From positions 83,681 to 107,680 of the forward strand of contig CAJTXR010000002.1 in the NCBI GenBank assembly GCA_910584005.1: a stretch of 24,000 nt of DNA, written 5' to 3'. This document shows positions 1,017 through 9,657 of the stretch, in pieces. The notes beneath the pieces are model-generated. The model was not told the origin of the DNA and did not search any database. It saw only the letters and a program-made list of their open reading frames with translations. Numbering within the stretch: the stretch's first letter is position 1; each line of letters opens with the position of its first letter. The position numbers were made by a program, and so were the translations under genes. The DNA is from an uncultured Anaeroplasmataceae bacterium. Its GTDB lineage: Bacteria > Bacillota_I > Bacilli_A > Acholeplasmatales > Anaeroplasmataceae.

Positions 1017-1976
1017 ATGGGATTAATTTTAGGAATCAATTCGGGTATTATTGCCGCAATTGTATTAAGTGTTTTAGGTTTAGTTATTTTAATTTTATTA
1101 ATTACAAGAATTAAAATTGTTCGTCAAACTCAAAAATTAATTATTGAAAGATTAGGGGCTTACCATGCCACTTGGTCAGTAGGGTTTCACTTTTTATTAC
1201 CTTTTATTGATCGTGTTGCTCAAGTAGTTTCTATGAAAGAACAGGTTAGTGACTTTGATCCTCAACCAGTAATTACAAAGGATAATGTTACTATGCAAAT
1301 TGATACGGTTGTTTTCTTTCAAATTACAGATCCAAAGTTATATTCATATGGTGTGGAAAACCCTATTGCAGCATTAGAAAATTTATCTTCAACGACTTTA
1401 CGTAATATCATTGGTGAATTAGATTTAGATGAAACCTTAACTTCACGTGATATTATAAATACAAAGATGCGTTCTATTTTAGATGAAGCTACAGATCCAT
1501 GGGGAATTAAAGTTAATCGTGTAGAGGTAAAAAACATTCTACCTCCAAAGGATATCCGGGAAGCAATGGAACGCCAAATGCGTGCAGAGCGTGAGCGTCG
1601 TGAGAAAATCTTATTAGCTGAAGGAGAAAAGCGGAGCCAAATTCTTCAAGCTGAAGGTGAAAGAGAATCTCAAATTTTAAGAGCTGATGCAGAAAAGCAA
1701 GCAATCATTAAAAAAGCAGAAGCTGAAGCAGAGTCTATTTTGAAAGTGAAATCTGCAGAAGCTGAAGGTGTTAGATTAACTCGTCAAGCTCAAGCGGATG
1801 GTTATAAAATGCTTGTTGAAGCAGGAGTAACAAAAGAAGTTTTAGCAATTAAATCATTTGAAACATTTGAAAAAGTATCTGATGGTCAATCTACAAAGAT
1901 TATTATCCCTTCTAATATGCAAGATTTAGCTTCTACAATTGCAGGAGTTGCTGAAGTTGTAAAAGACAAAAAATAA
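1017..1976 (+). CDS. SPFH/band-7 (stomatin/QmcA-like) membrane scaffold protein
   Basis: N-terminal TM helix, then IVRQTQKLIIERLGAYH...LLPFIDRV...VITKDNV...VVFFQITDP...RVEVKNILPP, then a Glu/Ala/Arg-rich coiled coil (RAERERREKILLAEGEKRSQILQAEGE...). This is the classical stomatin-type SPFH signature. RBS AGGAGG at 1000-1005. Confidence 0.9.
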   Translation: MGLILGINSGIIAAIVLSVLGLVILILLITRIKIVRQTQKLIIERLGAYHATWSVGFHFLLPFIDRVAQVVSMKEQVSDFDPQPVITKDNVTMQIDTVVFFQITDPKLYSYGVENPIAALENLSSTTLRNIIGELDLDETLTSRDIINTKMRSILDEATDPWGIKVNRVEVKNILPPKDIREAMERQMRAERERREKILLAEGEKRSQILQAEGERESQILRADAEKQAIIKKAEAEAESILKVKSAEAEGVRLTRQAQADGYKMLVEAGVTKEVLAIKSFETFEKVSDGQSTKIIIPSNMQDLASTIAGVAEVVKDKK

Positions 1977-1993
1977 ACTGCGGAGGGATATAC

Positions 1994-3346
1994 ATGAGAT
2001 TAGGTAAGTACTTAAAAGGGTGTAATGAGGTATATCATACCACATTTGATCCGCGAAAGACTAGTGCCATCCGAATTCATTTAGTTCCACCGAAAAAACC
2101 CAAGGCAGGCATACCTTGGGTTGTTGTCTTAAATGGATATGCTATTCTTCCTTTACAGACTTCATGGGCAATTTTATTAAAAGAATTTATGGAAGAGTTA
2201 AATGAAACAGATGGAATTGGTTTAACAGATGAGGATATAGATGAGCTGATTTCAAAAACGATTTTACGTGTGAAAAAGGTATTTACAAAGACAGATAAGG
2301 AAATCATAAAAAAAGATTTAGCTCAAATTGTTTTAACTTTAAAAGACGTTGCGTTTGGGAAAGAGCCAAACGAGGCTATTGGGTATATGAGCCTTTCTAC
2401 ATATGCAAAATATATGCAAGCTCCTCATCGCATGGATTTAATGGTTTCTGCAATGGAAAAAGAAGGTCAATGGCATTGCAATCAACATTGTCTTCATTGC
2501 TATGCTGCAAATGAAAAAAAGTCCAATGAAAAAGAATGCACAACAGATGAATGGAAACAAATGATTGATGCATGTAAAAAAGCATGTATTCCAGCTCTTA
2601 CGTTTACAGGTGGAGAAGCAACCTTGCGAGAAGATTTAGTAGAATTAATTAAATATTCACAATGGTTCGTTACTAGATTAAATACAAATGGGATTTTGTT
2701 AACAAAAAAATTATGTGAAGAATTATATGAGGCTAGCCTAGATAGTGTGCAAATTACTTTGTATTCTTTTGATCCTGCAATTCACAATACATTAGTTGGT
2801 GGAGATCACTTTAATCAAACTGTCTTAGGAATTAAAAATGCAATTGCTGCTGGGTTAGATGTGAGTATCAATACCCCTCTATGCAGTCTAAATCGTGAAT
2901 ATAAAAAAACGGTTCATTTTGCTGCGAGTCTTGGAGTTCATTATTTCTCTTGCTCAGGCTTAATTCCTACGGGAAATGCGAAACGCGATGAATCTAGTAT
3001 TACAGCTTTAAGTAAAGCAGATATTTTACAGGTAGTAAAGGATGCTGTTATTTACGGCAGAGATCATCAGTTGGATATCGCTTTTACATCTCCAGGCTGG
3101 ATCAAAGAAGCTGACTTAAAACAATTAAACCTTGTTGTACCATCTTGTGGGGCCTGTTTATCTAATATGGCCATTGCACCCAATGGAGATGTAATTCCCT
3201 GTCAGTCATGGTTAAATGGAATTACCTTAGGAAATATTTTGAAAAATGATTGGAAATCCATTTGGAATCATAAAGAATCATTACGAATACGGAATATGGC
3301 GAGTAAGACCCAACAAACTTGCTTGTTAAAACAGGAGGTAAAATAA
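1994..3346 (+). CDS. Radical SAM enzyme with an N-terminal extension of about 160 aa and a C-terminal Twitch/partial-SPASM auxiliary-cluster motif
   Basis: CX3CX2C = C162-N-Q-H-C166-L-H-C169 (2477-2500). GGE-type SAM motif TFTGGEATL. C-terminal CGAC-x9-G-DVIP-C (3146-3202) matches CX9-15GX4C, with one further Cys (C443). The CX2CX5CX3C block of a full SPASM domain is not seen. RBS GGAGGG at 1982-1987. Confidence 0.85.
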   Translation: MRLGKYLKGCNEVYHTTFDPRKTSAIRIHLVPPKKPKAGIPWVVVLNGYAILPLQTSWAILLKEFMEELNETDGIGLTDEDIDELISKTILRVKKVFTKTDKEIIKKDLAQIVLTLKDVAFGKEPNEAIGYMSLSTYAKYMQAPHRMDLMVSAMEKEGQWHCNQHCLHCYAANEKKSNEKECTTDEWKQMIDACKKACIPALTFTGGEATLREDLVELIKYSQWFVTRLNTNGILLTKKLCEELYEASLDSVQITLYSFDPAIHNTLVGGDHFNQTVLGIKNAIAAGLDVSINTPLCSLNREYKKTVHFAASLGVHYFSCSGLIPTGNAKRDESSITALSKADILQVVKDAVIYGRDHQLDIAFTSPGWIKEADLKQLNLVVPSCGACLSNMAIAPNGDVIPCQSWLNGITLGNILKNDWKSIWNHKESLRIRNMASKTQQTCLLKQEVK

Positions 3347-4314
3347 TGAAAAAAATTTACTACTGTTTTTGTTTGGTTGTATTCTTGTTTTTAACCTCTT
3401 GTCAGGATAAAATAGAACCTCTAGATGAAATAGAAGAATATATAATTCATATAGCCCCAACAGAAGAAGGGAATCTTCAAATGAATTATAAAATTGTTTG
3501 GAAAGTTTTAAATTCAGAAAAAGAAGGGCCATTAGAGTGGGTAAAAATTGGTATTCCTAATTATCATATTCAATCTTTAACTAGTCAAAGTTCTTCTATA
3601 AAAGATATCAGTGTTTCCTCAGATGATGGTGCGTATGTTAGAATCAATTTAGATAGATCCTATTATGCAGAAGAAACAGTTACTATGGAGTTTTCTTTTC
3701 TTCAAACCCATATTTACTCCTTAAAAAAAGAAGAGGTACAATATCGGATTATTCCAGGCTGGTTTGATGAAATACAAGTTAAGCAATTAATCGTTTATTG
3801 GGAAAAGAAAGATGTTATAAGCGAGAATTCAAATTCAAATGATGATAAATATTATATTTGGAGTACTTCTTTAGATTTTGGAGAGAGCATTCAAGTGGAT
3901 ATACAGTATAATGCGTCATCCTTTACAAATTTATCAAAGAATAATGCGGTACCTAAGAATTACGATCAGTGGATTATTGTTGCAGTTGTAAGTATAATTT
4001 TATTATTTGTGGTTATTATTCTTATATTCAATTGGCTGAGAAGAGATGAGTATTATACTTATCGTGGGTTTAGTGGAAGAAATTTTCATCATCACCATTG
4101 GTGGTGGTACTCCTCAGGAGTGAATCATCATGGAGATCGTATTCAAGATCCAAGAATTATAAATCGGGGTTCATCTCATTCTGGTGGATCTTCTTGTGCC
4201 TGTGCTTGTGCATGTGCCTGTGCTGGTGGTGGAAGAGCAGGATGCTCAAGAAAAGATTTTTATTCTAATGATTCAGAAATGGACCAGTTACTTTCTAAAT
4301 TAAATCAAAAATAA
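3346..4314 (+). CDS. Lipoprotein-type single-pass membrane protein with a His/Trp/Cys-rich cytoplasmic tail; function unknown
   Basis: ATG at 3346 overlaps the radical SAM stop (TAATG), with AGGAGG at 3333-3338. The track start at 3319 is an in-frame upstream extension. Signal peptide with lipobox LTSC (Cys19 at 3400-3402). Ectodomain of about 190 aa. TM helix WIIVAVVSIILLFVVIILIFNWL (3970-4038). Tail begins RRDEYY and contains HHHHWWW (4087-4107) and SSCACACACACAGGGRAGCS. Confidence 0.75.
   Translation: MKKIYYCFCLVVFLFLTSCQDKIEPLDEIEEYIIHIAPTEEGNLQMNYKIVWKVLNSEKEGPLEWVKIGIPNYHIQSLTSQSSSIKDISVSSDDGAYVRINLDRSYYAEETVTMEFSFLQTHIYSLKKEEVQYRIIPGWFDEIQVKQLIVYWEKKDVISENSNSNDDKYYIWSTSLDFGESIQVDIQYNASSFTNLSKNNAVPKNYDQWIIVAVVSIILLFVVIILIFNWLRRDEYYTYRGFSGRNFHHHHWWWYSSGVNHHGDRIQDPRIINRGSSHSGGSSCACACACACAGGGRAGCSRKDFYSNDSEMDQLLSKLNQK
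4195..4224 (+). repeat. Five tandem TGTGCN hexanucleotides encoding (Cys-Ala)x5 within the lipoprotein tail
   Basis: TGTGCC TGTGCT TGTGCA TGTGCC TGTGCT, in frame with the CDS starting at 3346, followed by GGTGGTGGA (GGG). Confidence 0.9.
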
Positions 4315-4329
4315 TTAGGAGAAAAACTT

Positions 4330-5097
4330 ATGGAAGTTTTAGTTGAATTCTTTGTAGAGATATTTTTAGAAATCTTTTTTGAGATTGGTGGAGTTGTAAT
4401 TTCTAAAATTGCCATTGATAAAAGAAAAAGAAAAATTACAAAGTATTGTATTTCCTTTTTTGTGTTTGCTTGTTGTTTATCTTTAATCATTTATTCTCTA
4501 ATTGTTAAAAAAATGTTATATGTTCAATTAGCTATGGCTTATTTTTTAGGATTATTGGTATGCTATATTTTAGAATTTATTAATAAAAATATGATTTACT
4601 CAAAAAAATTGGGAAAAGTTCTGCTTTACATTAAAAGAGGAATTCATTATGTATTTCCTATCCTTGTCATCACCCTCGTAAACATATATAAGACAGACCA
4701 ATCTGTATTGATTACCTGTTTAGCAGTTGTGGTACTTGTTTTGTATTTTGGAGTTATCCTTTACCGAATTACTTATCGCGATACATATTCTAATTTCAAA
4801 AGAAGAGCGAAAAAATTTCTTAAGGATTTTCAAGAATCTGAAGATGAAAAATATTTTGAATCCTTGCTGAAATTATCGGAAAAAAGTCCATCTTACCTGT
4901 TGAAATGGATAGAAGAATGTACGAAAAAAGAGGTAAATCCGATTTTAAAATTTATTATATTTAGTGAGAGATATTGTACACAAGAATTTTATGATGTTCT
5001 TCAAGATATAGCAGACAAGTATAATTTAAATATTGAAAGCGAATTATTAGAATTTAAAAATAAATTTATAGAAGAAAGTGAACCTGAAATTTATTAG
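4330..5097 (+). CDS. Polytopic membrane protein with a C-terminal soluble helical domain; function unknown; last gene of the operon
   Basis: RBS AGGAG (4316-4320). Acidic amphipathic N-terminus (MEVLVEFFVEIFLEIFFEIGG), about 4-5 hydrophobic helices, then a charged C-terminal domain of about 100 aa. Followed directly by a terminator. Confidence 0.65.
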   Translation: MEVLVEFFVEIFLEIFFEIGGVVISKIAIDKRKRKITKYCISFFVFACCLSLIIYSLIVKKMLYVQLAMAYFLGLLVCYILEFINKNMIYSKKLGKVLLYIKRGIHYVFPILVITLVNIYKTDQSVLITCLAVVVLVLYFGVILYRITYRDTYSNFKRRAKKFLKDFQESEDEKYFESLLKLSEKSPSYLLKWIEECTKKEVNPILKFIIFSERYCTQEFYDVLQDIADKYNLNIESELLEFKNKFIEESEPEIY

Positions 5098-5101
5098 CTT
5101 T

Positions 5102-5136
5102 AAAAAAAATCACTTTGAATTGAAAGTGATTTTTTA
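5102..5136. terminator. Rho-independent terminator ending the six-gene operon (A-tract/T-tract flanked, potentially bidirectional)
   Basis: AAAAAAAA + stem ATCACTTT (5109-5116), loop GAATTG, stem AAAGTGAT (5123-5130), then TTTTT. Confidence 0.8.
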
Positions 5137-5206
5137 TTTGTTTAGAAAAGTCGCTAAAAAAACAGCATTTATTTTTCAAAGTTCTTTTAAATTCATTGAT
5201 AAAAAA

Positions 5207-5235
5207 TGGTAAAATTTACCAAATTATGCTATAAT
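5207..5235 (+). promoter_or_regulatory. Promoter of the PAPS-reductase/ParB pair, with an overlapping palindromic operator candidate
   Basis: Extended -10 TGCTATAAT (5227-5235). Weak -35 TGGTAA (5207-5212) at a 17-nt spacing. Perfect palindrome TGGTAAA-A-TTTACCA (5207-5221) covers the -35 and the start of the spacer. Confidence 0.45.
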
Positions 5236-5267
5236 AAAGTGAATTTTGTTCTAAAAGGAGCCGGTTT

Positions 5268-6587
5268 ATGAAAAAGAAATACTTAGATATTAATGTATAT
5301 GAAAGCCTATTAAATCGATTAAAATTCATTTTTGAGGAATTTGAGAATATCTTTGTATCTTTTTCAGGAGGAAAAGATAGCGGATTACTATTAGAACTGG
5401 TTTTAGACTTTCAAAAGAAGCATTACCCTCATCGCAAAATTGGTGTATTCCATCAGGACTTTGAAGCTCAATATTCCTACACAACAAAATATGTAGAAGA
5501 AACATTTGAACGAATCAAAGATGAAGCAGAGCTATATTGGGTATGCTTGCCAATGGCTACTAGAACAGCACTGAGTAATTATGAAATGTTTTGGTATCCT
5601 TGGGATGACAAAGCCAAAGATATATGGGTAAGACCTATTCCAAACCATGAATATGTAATTACTTTAGAAAATAATCCAATTACAACCTATAAGTATCGTA
5701 TGCATCAAGAAGATCTTGCGAAGCAATTTGGTAGATGGTATAAACTATCTCATGGGGATACATCAACCATCTGCTTATTAGGAATTCGAGCAGATGAATC
5801 CTTACAACGATATAATGGTTTTTTAAATAAAAAAAGAGGATATAAGCATAATTGTTATATTACTCAACAATTTAAAAATGTATGGTGTGCCTCTCCGCTT
5901 TATGATTGGAGTGTTCAGGATGTATGGCATGCGATTGCCAAAAATGGATATACCTATAATCAATTATATGATATGCTTTATTTGGCAGGAGTTAAACCAA
6001 CCCAAATGAGAGTAGCTTCTCCTTTTAATGATTACGCTAAGGATTGTCTAAATTTATATCGTGTGATAGAACCTGAAACATGGACTAAATTATTAGGTAG
6101 AGTTAAAGGCGTAAATTTTGCTTGTATATATGGACGGACAAAAGCCTTAGGATATCGCAATATTACACTGCCTGAAGGTCATACATGGGAATCTTATACA
6201 AAGTTTTTACTCTCCACATTGCCAAGAAGGATTAGGAACAATTATATTAAAAAATTTAAAACATCAATTGATTTTTGGCATACAATTGGTGGTGGTCTTG
6301 AAGAAGAAACAATTAAAGAGTTAGAGGAGCATGGATATTTAATTCGTAGAAATGGAGTTTCAAATTATACTATTTTTAGAAATTCTAGAATTGTATTTAT
6401 GTGTAAGATACCTGATCATACAGATGATATTAAATCCACAAAGGATATCCCTAGCTGGAAAAGAATGTGTTATTGTATATTGAAAAATGATCATATTTGC
6501 AGATCTATGGGATTTGGACTCACTCGAGATCAGCAAAATAAAATAAAAATGATAAAAGAAAAATATGATGGATTGGAGGAATTATAA
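5268..6587 (+). CDS. PAPS-reductase-like PP-loop ATP pyrophosphatase with a long C-terminal extension (IbrA-like / DndC-like)
   Basis: PP-loop SGGKDS (5364-5381) within FVSFSGGKDSGLLLELV. The central LLGIRADES region is typical of the PAPS reductase fold. The extra C-terminal region of about 200 aa matches the architecture I associate with the DUF3440-type IbrA family. RBS AAGGAG at 5255-5260. Confidence 0.8.
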   Translation: MKKKYLDINVYESLLNRLKFIFEEFENIFVSFSGGKDSGLLLELVLDFQKKHYPHRKIGVFHQDFEAQYSYTTKYVEETFERIKDEAELYWVCLPMATRTALSNYEMFWYPWDDKAKDIWVRPIPNHEYVITLENNPITTYKYRMHQEDLAKQFGRWYKLSHGDTSTICLLGIRADESLQRYNGFLNKKRGYKHNCYITQQFKNVWCASPLYDWSVQDVWHAIAKNGYTYNQLYDMLYLAGVKPTQMRVASPFNDYAKDCLNLYRVIEPETWTKLLGRVKGVNFACIYGRTKALGYRNITLPEGHTWESYTKFLLSTLPRRIRNNYIKKFKTSIDFWHTIGGGLEEETIKELEEHGYLIRRNGVSNYTIFRNSRIVFMCKIPDHTDDIKSTKDIPSWKRMCYCILKNDHICRSMGFGLTRDQQNKIKMIKEKYDGLEEL

Positions 6588-7153
6588 TGGAGTTTAAAAG
6601 TCCTGTTTACAATATTAGATCGGTTCCGATTGAAAAGATTGATCCTAATGATTATAATCCAAATTCTGTTGCACCTCCAGAGATGAGGTTACTTTATGAT
6701 AGTATCAAAGAAGACGGATATACGATGCCAATTGTTTGTTACTATAATAAAGCTGAAGATCGTTATATTATAGTTGATGGGTTTCATCGCTATCGAGTAA
6801 TGCTTGAATATCAAGATATTTATGAAAGAGAAAAAGGATTACTCCCTGTATCTGTTATAGACAAGCCATTAGAAAAGAGGATGGCAAGTACAATTCGGCA
6901 TAATCGGGCTCGCGGGACTCATAATGTAGATTTAATGAGTAATATTATTAGTGAACTTCATGAACTTGGACGTTCTGATGCTTGGATTTCTAAGCATTTA
7001 GGAATGGAAAAGGATGAAATATTGCGTTTAAAACAAATCACGGGTCTTTCAAAATTATTTCAAGATGTTGAATTTGGAAAAAGTTGGATTCCTGAAGATG
7101 ATTTTGATATGAACTTTGAAAAAGAAGAAGAGTATTTAGTTGGAAGTAAATAA
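6587..7153 (+). CDS. ParB/sulfiredoxin-like N-terminal domain protein (IbrB-like / DndB-related)
   Basis: The start overlaps the upstream stop (TAATG at 6585-6589), with GGAGGA at 6575-6580. ParB-N motifs: PNDYNPNSV, IIVDGFHRY (DGxHR at 6776-6790), and the Arg-rich IRHNRARGTH. Confidence 0.8.
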   Translation: MEFKSPVYNIRSVPIEKIDPNDYNPNSVAPPEMRLLYDSIKEDGYTMPIVCYYNKAEDRYIIVDGFHRYRVMLEYQDIYEREKGLLPVSVIDKPLEKRMASTIRHNRARGTHNVDLMSNIISELHELGRSDAWISKHLGMEKDEILRLKQITGLSKLFQDVEFGKSWIPEDDFDMNFEKEEEYLVGSK

Positions 7154-7160
7154 AAAATAA

Positions 7161-7188
7161 AAAAAAGCCAATAACTGTTGGCTTTTTG
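7161..7188. terminator. Hairpin terminator shared by the convergent ParB-like gene (+) and the tRNA operon (-)
   Basis: AAAAA + stem AGCCAA (7166-7171), loop TAACTG, stem TTGGCT (7178-7183), then TTTTT. A- and T-tracts on both sides. Confidence 0.7.
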
Positions 7189-7198
7189 AATTTTCTTA

Positions 7199-7275
7199 TG
7201 GCGCACCCTAGAGGATTCGAACCCCTAACCTTTTGATCCGTAGTCAAACGATCTATCCAATTGATCTAAGGGTGC
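7199..7275 (-). tRNA. tRNA-Arg (anticodon ACG), CCA encoded
   Basis: The reverse complement folds into a full cloverleaf: acceptor GCACCCT/AGGGTGC, D stem GATC/GATC, anticodon stem TTTGA/TCAAA with loop CTACGGA, T arm AGGGG-TTCGAAT-CCTCT, then GCCA at the 3' end. Confidence 0.95.
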
Positions 7276-7287
7276 AAGCTTTTCTAA

Positions 7288-7363
7288 TGGCGGTTCGGAC
7301 GGGACTTGAACCCGCGATCTCCAGTGTGACAGACTAGCATGTTAACCACTACACCACCGAACC
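7288..7363 (-). tRNA. tRNA-Asp (anticodon GTC), CCA encoded
   Basis: Reverse complement GGTTCGGTGGTGTAGTGGTTAACATGCTAGTCTGTCACACTGGAGATCGCGGGTTCAAGTCCCGTCCGAACCGCCA. Acceptor GGTTCGG/CCGAACC, anticodon stem CTAGT/ACTGG, loop CTGTCAC, T loop TTCAAGT. Confidence 0.95.
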
Positions 7364-7381
7364 ATCTCTTAACGCTTGATT

Positions 7382-7411
7382 ATTATATCATATTTACTAG
7401 TTTAAAAACAA
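7382..7411 (-). promoter_or_regulatory. Candidate promoter of the tRNA-Asp/tRNA-Arg operon
   Basis: On the minus strand: -35 TTGTTT (7406-7411), 18-nt spacer, extended -10 TGATATAAT (7382-7390), about 19 nt upstream of the tRNA-Asp 5' end. Confidence 0.4.
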
Positions 7412-8534: not shown

Positions 8535-8543
8535 TGATATAAT
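8535..8543 (+). promoter_or_regulatory. Extended -10 element upstream of the orphan gene
   Basis: TGATATAAT (8535-8543) with no convincing -35. It overlaps the track ATG at 8542, supporting the downstream start at 8569. Confidence 0.3.
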
Positions 8544-8568
8544 GAAAAAAAGAATAGAGGGGAAAAAT

Positions 8569-9657
8569 ATGCTTAAAGATTTGATATTAGATAACGAAAG
8601 AAAAATAGAAAAATTTGATATAAATTATTTTAAAAAAGCAAAAAATTATCCTGTGGTGGCTTCTCTTTCAGCATTAGAAACGACGAATGAAATACAAAAA
8701 TGCTACTTTGAACAGGAGGATTCAACCATTTCTTTTAATGTATTAAAACTCTATGCATTATTGCAGAGTCTTTTTGTTTCAATAGATTCTTTATATGCCC
8801 TCTCTTATTCGTTAACGAAAAGTAAAAGTTTTATAAATATTAATAAAAATCAAATCCTAAGAGAATTAAAATATATTCGAAATGATGTGGTTGGGCATCC
8901 TGCCAATCGTATGTATAATTCTTCTGTTCTTGCATACTGTATCCTTGATAATGAGAGCGTAACAAAAAAAGAATTTTCTTATGATATTTATACAGGACAA
9001 GGTGTGGAAAAAAAGAAAGTGGATGTTGAACAATTAATCCAATCCTATTATTTAGAATGTAATACATTATTAAAAGAATTACAAAGTGTTGCTAAGGATG
9101 AACGACAAAATTCAATGTTGATTCATATGTCAATAGAGGCTATAAATTTATTTGATATGGAAGGAAATTACAAAGATAAACTTGAGGAATTAAAAAAATT
9201 GTATTTTACTTTGTACCCTTCTGCAACCTCTAATCAGCATCGTTTCTTATGGCGAATGGAGCTCATTGAGGAATTATTAAATTATGAAAACAAAGATCAA
9301 GATATTCAAGAGTTAAAAGAATATGCAATTGGTCTAGAAATTATTAAAATTTATCAACTTCTTTCAGGTAAACTTTATCCAATGTCTTTAGGGAGAAGAA
9401 AGCCATTTTTAGTTTCATCTTTTTATCGATTTATCAAGAAAAATAAAACTTCATTACAGCATATAGATAAAATAACGGATATCAAAAATCCATTAATTAA
9501 AAATTCTTTTGAAGAATTATTAAAATTGGCCATAGATAAAAATGCGATAGGACCAATAAAATATATAACATTATTGCAGGAATTATATCAAAATCAAAAT
9601 GATTCTTTGCTCTATGCATTATCATTACCATTAAAGGAGTATAAAAAAGGGAAATAA
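8569..9657 (+). CDS. Hypothetical all-helical protein with a HEPN/Abi-like R-N-x4-H motif; monocistronic
   Basis: ATG at 8569 sits 6 nt after GAGGGG. Motif LKYIRNDVVGHPANRMYN (RNDVVGH at 8878-8898). No TM segment or signal peptide. Flanked by a terminator upstream and the typA promoter downstream. Confidence 0.6.
   Translation: MLKDLILDNERKIEKFDINYFKKAKNYPVVASLSALETTNEIQKCYFEQEDSTISFNVLKLYALLQSLFVSIDSLYALSYSLTKSKSFININKNQILRELKYIRNDVVGHPANRMYNSSVLAYCILDNESVTKKEFSYDIYTGQGVEKKKVDVEQLIQSYYLECNTLLKELQSVAKDERQNSMLIHMSIEAINLFDMEGNYKDKLEELKKLYFTLYPSATSNQHRFLWRMELIEELLNYENKDQDIQELKEYAIGLEIIKIYQLLSGKLYPMSLGRRKPFLVSSFYRFIKKNKTSLQHIDKITDIKNPLIKNSFEELLKLAIDKNAIGPIKYITLLQELYQNQNDSLLYALSLPLKEYKKGK

Follow-up and report, generated by a model that had tools for sequence, protein, structure and literature searches.

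IbrA and IbrB are among the more widespread two-gene units of bacteria, phages and plasmids that are still without a known chemistry. In the original description of 2002 the two Escherichia coli proteins reportedly activate expression of the prophage eib genes, and databases name the family 'co-activator of prophage gene expression'. The corresponding proteins of E. coli K-12 are YbdN and YbdM; YbdM is listed as a predicted transcription factor (PMC9068703), and in a survey of Listeria the pair figures solely as a toxin-antitoxin candidate proposed through guilt by association (PMC7020466). We found no biochemical study of the family in the literature. Here we describe a gene pair of this kind, ibrA and ibrB, at positions 5268–7153 of a 24,000-nucleotide stretch of contig CAJTXR010000002.1 (hereafter the window) from an uncultured member of the Anaeroplasmataceae. 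The host genome (G000; 1.7 Mb, 19 contigs, 98.8% complete) is that of a mouse-gut bacterium of this family, and the sequencing runs that bear the locus are mouse-gut metagenomes. A model's earlier reading of the letters of the window (the original prediction) had described the pair as a self-contained IbrA/IbrB-like, or DndC/DndB-like, unit next to a tRNA gene. Sequence comparisons indicate that it is almost certainly an intact IbrA/IbrB (YbdN/YbdM) family cassette, an ordinary member of a known family with nothing new in kind. It acts as a long-resident gene pair under strong selection and not as a fast-turnover defence island, and we lean somewhat towards viewing it as an autoregulated module that acts on nucleic acid.

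An intact ibrA–ibrB cassette

The first gene, ibrA (5268–6587, plus strand), is an open reading frame (ORF) of 439 aa whose N-terminal half has the PP-loop fold of 3′-phosphoadenosine 5′-phosphosulfate (PAPS) reductase and whose C-terminal half is DUF3440. The second, ibrB (6587–7153, plus strand), is an ORF of 188 aa with a ParB/Srx-type N-terminal domain, a helix-turn-helix (HTH) and an acidic C-terminal tail. Base 6587 is common to the TAA stop of ibrA and the ATG start of ibrB, and translation of the two genes is coupled. The PP-loop motif SGGKDS, the ATP alpha/beta-phosphate binding site, is encoded at 5364–5381 (plus strand; IbrA residues 33–38) and DGFHR at 6776–6790 (plus strand; IbrB residues 64–68), and the ORF translation of IbrB also contains RHNRARG. 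Both ORFs, the three motifs and the gene overlap are as first described in the original prediction.

IbrA is homologous over its full length to YbdN of E. coli K-12 (31% identity, E 8e-62) and IbrB to YbdM (48% identity, E 3e-52), and in the PHROGs database they match phrog_2302 (E 2e-100) and phrog_2159 (E 2e-80) respectively. Two Pfam domains are found in IbrA, PAPS_reduct (PF01507, E 6e-13) and DUF3440 (PF11922, E 3e-86), both above the curated cut-offs. The ParB_N match of IbrB (E 1.2e-5, 25.7 bits) falls slightly below the cut-off of 26.3 bits, and the ParB-like assignment is settled by the YbdM homology and the fold search described below. The IbrA/IbrB-like call of the original prediction is thereby upheld, with two of the three profiles that it had named above their cut-offs and ParB_N just short of it.

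Several more specific identities were considered and rejected. The DndC equivalog model TIGR03183 scores 31.4 bits against a cut-off of 290.4 and covers only residues 165–226 of IbrA, and the DndB models in NCBIfam and PADLOC do not match IbrB, so that the likeness to DndC/DndB proposed earlier exists at the superfamily level only. PADLOC gives weak DndC (E 2.5e-10) and BrxP (E 1e-7) matches for the first protein, confined to the shared PP-loop core, and nothing for IbrB; a DndD profile has no match in the genome, in which dndA and dndE were not searched for. Profiles for CysH, CysD and adenosine 5′-phosphosulfate (APS) reductase score 17–19 bits against cut-offs of 154–254, in agreement with the earlier reading of the enzyme as something other than an assimilatory CysH/CysD protein. 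For IbrB the partition profile parB_part reaches 25.8 bits (cut-off 58.45) and the Noc profile 25.3 bits (cut-off 315). IbrA also has a weak match to a TilS N-terminal model (E 2e-4).

Pairing and neighbours in the wider family

The gene order is constant. Each of 80 loci from other genomes (mostly Lachnospiraceae, Oscillospiraceae and Bacilli, with IbrA mostly at 70–75% and IbrB at 75–85% identity) has ibrA directly upstream of ibrB, and four more copies from the genus bring the related loci with adjacent genes to 84 of 84. When all the ORFs that flank the pair in these 84 loci were clustered, no third conserved gene emerged, and the only recurrent neighbour is a MatE transporter gene, present at varying positions in 14 of them. 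Together with a promoter of its own (see below), this bears out the proposal of a self-contained two-gene unit.

The family is large. IbrB has at least 8000 relatives, and most of the best 120 listed are 75–85% identical to it; 221 phage records and 727 plasmid records contain the family, and copies with 70–72% identity are present on plasmids of Clostridium perfringens, Enterococcus faecalis and Subdoligranulum. More distant members (31–47% identity) are linked to SNF2-type helicases. One example is a helicase-IbrA-IbrB trio that follows the lysis genes of Lactobacillus phage CR28, and the same trio is found in three prophage places, in one of which (L134) an integrase is close behind it. This post-lysis position is where temperate phages usually carry accessory genes that are expressed from the prophage. 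In a Listeria record an SNF2-related gene is beside a family match, and an upstream fragment from a fourth look-up appears, in our own reading, to be the C terminus of another SNF2 protein.

A conserved promoter with a palindrome over the −35 position

A perfect 15-bp palindrome, TGGTAAA-N-TTTACCA (where N is A in this genome), is at 5207–5221 and covers the −35 position of a promoter whose extended −10 element, TGCTATAAT (5227–5235, plus strand), was read from the sequence, as was the ribosome-binding site AAAGGAG (5254–5260, plus strand) 7 nt ahead of the ibrA ATG. The block AAAWTGGTAAAWTTTACCAAWTTATGNTATAAT is present in seven of the eight genus orthologues, whatever their chromosomal position, and an alignment of seven species has 29 invariant positions in or just before it, with both flanks diverged. 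The −10 element is invariant among them in the form TGnTATAAT, and the whole block is conserved although the synonymous sites of the coding regions are saturated. A simple promoter scan missed the site, in which the −35 is weak (3–4 of 6 matches), and the promoter call is supported by its conservation across species. The promoter and palindrome that the original prediction had noted are thus present, and they move with the cassette.

No other match to the palindrome is found in the 1.7-Mb genome with up to one mismatch allowed. Among 72 upstream regions of the wider clade, 27 contain palindromes with TGGWAA/TTWCCA half-sites, compared with 56 of 3892 control windows from the same loci and 8 of 707 AT-rich control windows, counts that are not independent because the loci are related to one another. 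Neither the region ahead of E. coli ybdN nor the phage trios nor the C. perfringens plasmid copy has the palindrome, and the putative operator would therefore be specific to this clade. From its position and conservation we propose that the palindrome at 5207–5221 is an operator and probably the binding site of IbrB. Whether ibrAB is autoregulated through it seems to us evenly balanced on the sequence evidence.

Conserved features of IbrA and IbrB

In an alignment of 43 diverse IbrA homologues the SGGKDS residues (S33, G34, G35, K36, D37 and S38) are invariant or at least 90% conserved. Other conserved residues include D64, E66, those of a GIRxDES motif (G172, R174, E177 and S178), D213, D218, Y234 and six tryptophans. 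The AlphaFold model of IbrA has a predicted local distance difference test (pLDDT) score of 90. Foldseek aligns it with structures in the Protein Data Bank (PDB) only over the first ~230–260 residues, the N-terminal half, where the matches are PAPS reductase, CysD and FAD synthase and, more weakly, TilS, TtuA, NcsA and LarE. The DUF3440 half has no match in the same search, and in the Atlas structure search nothing exceeds a template modelling (TM) score of 0.3 beyond DUF3440 itself, so this half is without a structural relative outside its own family; by sequence no solved structure corresponds to IbrA (best match E 0.5). The DUF3440 half is strongly basic, with an isoelectric point of 9.4 and a charge of +11.

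DUF3440 of this IbrA includes a 35-residue insertion at residues ~325–359 (window 6270–6380) that is a gap in the alignment with YbdN. We note that the insertion and the residues following it are predicted to form a strand-helix-strand-strand element (~residues 342–378 of the model). About half of the more distant IbrA homologues match in two stretches that are broken near the insertion, which suggests that they also lack it.

Across 24 IbrB homologues 59 columns are invariant. These include YNPN, VAPPE, DG-HR and STIRHNRARG as well as an HTH-like segment, GxSDxxI...GM...E.LRLKQ, after which comes the variable acidic tail (charge −6.5). The top Foldseek matches of the IbrB model are KorB of RK2, Noc and ParB proteins, over 150–160 columns that include the HTH (E ~1e-7); sulfiredoxin and SbnI match the N-terminal domain only. 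In the comparison with Noc, IbrB has NPN opposite the ParB motif QPR and DGFHRYR opposite GERRWR. Both DGFHRYR, which resembles box II, and HNRAR, which resembles box III, are invariant in IbrB, and HNRAR would correspond to the ENxxR of ParB box III in our own reading against the consensus. The C-terminal dimerisation domain is lacking, and the protein stops with the acidic tail at 188 aa. A ParB_N profile search of the 98.8%-complete genome gave no match at E ≤ 1e-3 and is insensitive, as it missed IbrB too; the genome may lack a canonical Spo0J/ParB, in which case IbrB would be its sole ParB-like protein.

Selection, descent and distribution

Both genes are under strong purifying selection, with a constraint like that on a core translation factor. 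Between this genome and that of a related species (G001), dN/dS is 0.018 for ibrA, 0.051 for ibrB, 0.025 for typA and 0.095 for the neighbouring M42 peptidase gene, ratios that are rough at a dS of 1.05–1.7, and nucleotide identity is 84–85% for ibrA, ibrB and typA alike. In a tree of 79 IbrA sequences obtained by a quick tree search, the genus copies form one clade (SH-aLRT 99), with a single 'Bacilli' metagenome-assembled genome (MAG) inside it. This clade is sister to Anaeroplasma bactoclasticum and nested among Lachnospiraceae sequences. We also note that a contig binned as Prevotella sp. has an ibrAB that is only 0.012–0.016 changes per column away from the A. bactoclasticum copy, with a near-identical upstream region (loci L090 and L117). 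Both MAG names share the prefix NALB, and the Prevotella-binned copy is probably a binning error, or else reflects a very recent transfer.

The pair is present in 8 of 20 species of the genus, with a full-length orthologue (80–95% identity) in 7 of the 19 species other than this one; a weak match in G017 is a different protein. The pair is absent from all 21 genomes that were searched in other genera of the same family and order. It is therefore polymorphic among close relatives and not part of a universally conserved core, both in line with the original prediction, being absent from 12 of the 20 species. In four of the eight species (G000, G001, G005 and G014) it lies between an SPFH (Band_7) gene and tRNA-Arg, and in the others (G002, G012, G010 and G013) it is at other chromosomal sites, where its neighbours are unrelated: MatE, surface proteins, SurE and an SbcC-like ATPase. 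In G010 it is upstream of a co-directional tRNA-Thr gene.

Comparison across the genus shows that the interval from the SPFH gene to tRNA-Arg(ACG), 1976–7199 in this window, is a generally variable hotspot next to a tRNA gene. It is empty in G012 and G017, holds the pair only in G005, and in this genome holds the pair and a radical-SAM block. Elsewhere it contains an SDR-LuxE-LuxC set (G016, G008 and G015, with an HTH gene identified beside the set in G016), genes for a uridine kinase, an aminotransferase and DUF3737 (G009), or a tyrosine integrase next to the tRNA (G018); G004 has a 315-aa ORF where G018 has its integrase. The interval is not a defence island, and we reject that reading of it, since sister species hold ordinary accessory genes or an integrase there. 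The radical-SAM block (1994–5097) separates the SPFH gene from ibrA and comprises one gene for a radical SAM/SPASM protein and two for membrane proteins without annotation; it is wholly missing from the otherwise syntenic G005 locus.

The position next to a tRNA had implied an integrated island in the original prediction, and here we differ from it. The stretch 1900–7400 contains neither an integrase nor a direct repeat of the tRNA-Arg 3′ end, the genus copies form one clade, and their divergence is like that of flanking core genes; a recently integrated island is rejected on these grounds, and the G010 copy is beside a different tRNA, tRNA-Thr. The pair has long been resident, with loss or relocation in some species, and is not a fresh island.

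A proposed role and its alternatives

The reading that we find somewhat more persuasive than not is that ibrAB is an autoregulated module acting on nucleic acid. IbrB, through its KorB/Noc/ParB-like N-terminal domain and HTH, would bind the palindrome over the −35 position and repress its own operon. IbrA would use its intact PP-loop to split ATP, as an ATP pyrophosphatase, and to adenylate a substrate that would most probably be a position on DNA, and IbrB would target or gate IbrA. DNA is favoured as the substrate because IbrA has a DNA-binding protein as its obligate partner, because its DUF3440 half is strongly basic and because more distant members, several of them on phages and prophages, are linked to SNF2; taken singly, this step is tentative and rather doubtful. 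The modification or conflict module of the original prediction is likewise putative.

Several observations weigh against this proposal. Activation of prophage eib genes is, to our knowledge, the only published phenotype of the family, and it fits regulation as well as modification. C93 is the lone nearly invariant cysteine of IbrA, and no set of Fe-S cysteines like that of DndC was found in the 43-homologue alignment, so that sulfur chemistry on the DNA backbone is not indicated. PP-loop relatives include enzymes that act on tRNA (TilS, TtuA) and others whose substrates are small molecules (FAD synthase, CysD). Confidence in the IbrB model is only moderate (pLDDT 68.7), and two residues that contact CTP in ParB are replaced in IbrB, with QPR changed to NPN and the first arginine of GERRxR to histidine. 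A host factor rather than IbrB could bind the palindrome. In E. coli, ybdNM is repressed by a separate, divergently encoded LysR-type protein, CitR (PMC9068703), and its upstream region does not have this palindrome. Finally, the runs that hold the locus are labelled transcriptomic and flagged as probably DNA, and their contigs are directionless.

Of the alternatives, the one that survives best is a purely transcription-regulatory pair, in which IbrB is a KorB-like regulator and IbrA makes or senses a small-molecule or nucleotide signal, with prophage genes as one possible output. It would account for the KorB/ParB-like fold with its HTH, for a conserved operator within the pair's own promoter, and for both the database name of the family and the listing of YbdM as a predicted transcription factor (PMC9068703). 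However, the genome has no second copy of the palindrome at one mismatch or fewer and thus no visible regulon, no prophage partner is conserved beside the pair, and a 439-aa enzyme that is held at a dN/dS of 0.018 and always coupled to the regulator is left unexplained. We regard it as unlikely.

Anti-phage or anti-plasmid defence, or counter-defence, in which incoming DNA is marked or damaged as by the Dnd, Ssp and type 4 BREX enzymes, appears quite improbable. The PADLOC matches to DndC and BrxP that point to it are limited to the shared PP-loop core. Distant relatives do occupy the 'moron' position after the lysis genes of temperate phages, beside an SNF2 helicase, and the pair is patchy within the genus and its family frequent on plasmids and phages. 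Nonetheless, no restriction or effector partner is conserved in the 84 loci, the neighbours are housekeeping or ordinary accessory genes and not defence genes, DndD is not found in the genome, and the vertical descent and very low dN/dS are unlike those of fast-turnover defence genes.

A third possibility is that IbrA is an RNA-modifying PP-loop enzyme, acting for example on tRNA like TilS, TtcA and TtuA, and that IbrB is only its regulator. The closest folds are those of PAPS reductase, FAD synthase and CysD and not of tRNA enzymes, although TilS, TtuA and NcsA are among the structural neighbours, the TilS N-terminal model matches weakly and the C-terminal half of IbrA is basic. The Fe-S-binding cysteine triad of TtuA and TtcA is absent, in other clades the linkage with an SNF2 DNA translocase speaks for DNA, and the tRNA adjacency belongs to the hotspot and not to the pair, all of which make an RNA substrate of this kind very unlikely. 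A housekeeping pair for sulfate assimilation (CysH/CysD) and chromosome partition (ParB), for which only superfamily-level matches speak, can be set aside, as the CysH, CysD, APS reductase and parB_part scores are far below their cut-offs, the pair is missing from most species of the genus, IbrB lacks the C-terminal dimerisation domain and, in keeping with the earlier view that gene 2 is not a chromosomal partition ParB, the genes read in the flanks that were searched (MatE, SurE, surface proteins and the like) are unrelated to partition and include no ParA-like partner.

Within the proposal of an autoregulated module acting on nucleic acid, a more specific version is conceivable, in which IbrB is a nucleotide-gated clamp of the KorB/ParB type that loads at the palindrome of its own promoter and carries or activates IbrA for a chemical modification of DNA through ATP-dependent adenylation. 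We consider it a long shot. If true, two proteins would make up a locus-seeded DNA-marking system different from Dnd, Ssp, Dpd and BREX, in which the enzyme would face the DNA with its orphan DUF3440 fold. The helicase-less clade of gut bacteria offers a compact and strongly footprinted promoter/operator as a handle on DNA binding by IbrB and on autoregulation. If the substrate of IbrA were identified, thousands of annotations as 'PAPS reductase' or 'ParB partition protein' would have to be corrected.

Flanking features of the window

Hairpins flank the cassette on both sides, as the original prediction had it. The upstream one (5104–5135, plus strand) is an AT-rich inverted repeat with adjacent 16-nt arms that are 94% complementary, followed by a T-run. 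It is likely to terminate the preceding operon and to bound the cassette upstream; the terminator scan skipped it, as it has fewer than three G-C pairs. The downstream terminator hairpin (7162–7187) was listed by the scan on both strands and is probably shared with the convergent tRNA-Asp and tRNA-Arg genes, serving these too. The gene for tRNA-Arg(ACG) (7199–7275, minus strand) is the neighbour that marks the hotspot and is outside the cassette, its 3′ end lying 45 nt from the ibrB stop codon, the distance given in the original prediction, and that for tRNA-Asp is at 7288–7363 on the same strand, convergent with the pair. Further along, a 371-aa ORF without a Pfam match (8542–9657) is beside the M42 peptidase gene in most species of the genus, and at 46–81% identity it is far more diverged than its neighbours.

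Comparison with known systems

The closest described relatives, YbdN/YbdM of E. coli and the island paralogues IbrA/IbrB of ECOR-9, have the same gene order, gene overlap and domain architectures as the pair described here. There are departures of three types. First, YbdN does not have the 35-residue insertion in DUF3440. Second, E. coli ybdNM has a divergent gene for a LysR-type repressor, citR (PMC9068703), and this copy has a palindromic operator of its own, as we propose it. Third, unlike the E. coli pairs, this copy is linked neither to citrate genes nor to prophage genes.

The phage and prophage trios (phage CR28, Streptococcus thermophilus phages and Listeria) have an IbrA of 38–47% identity, the same order and overlapping genes, and match phrog_2302 and phrog_2159 as the proteins here do. 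They differ in having an SNF2 helicase upstream and a post-lysis position, whereas the 84 loci of the clade to which this pair belongs have no helicase and have their own promoter. In the Dnd, SspD and BrxP systems, too, a PP-loop enzyme with the PAPS-reductase fold has a protein of the ParB/Srx superfamily as its partner or nearby. The motif of IbrB is DGFHR and differs from the DGQHR of DndB.

The comparison with the CTP-dependent clamps KorB (RK2), Noc and ParB rests on structure prediction, in which the fold of IbrB matches their N-terminal nucleotide-binding domain and HTH. A short palindromic site adjoins the gene, as it does for these proteins, and the positions of the GxxR and NxxR motifs are kept. 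In contrast to them, IbrB has NPN in place of QPR, DGFHRYR in place of GERRxR and no C-terminal dimerisation domain, and where they have a ParA or KorA partner, none of which is seen here, IbrB has an enzyme.

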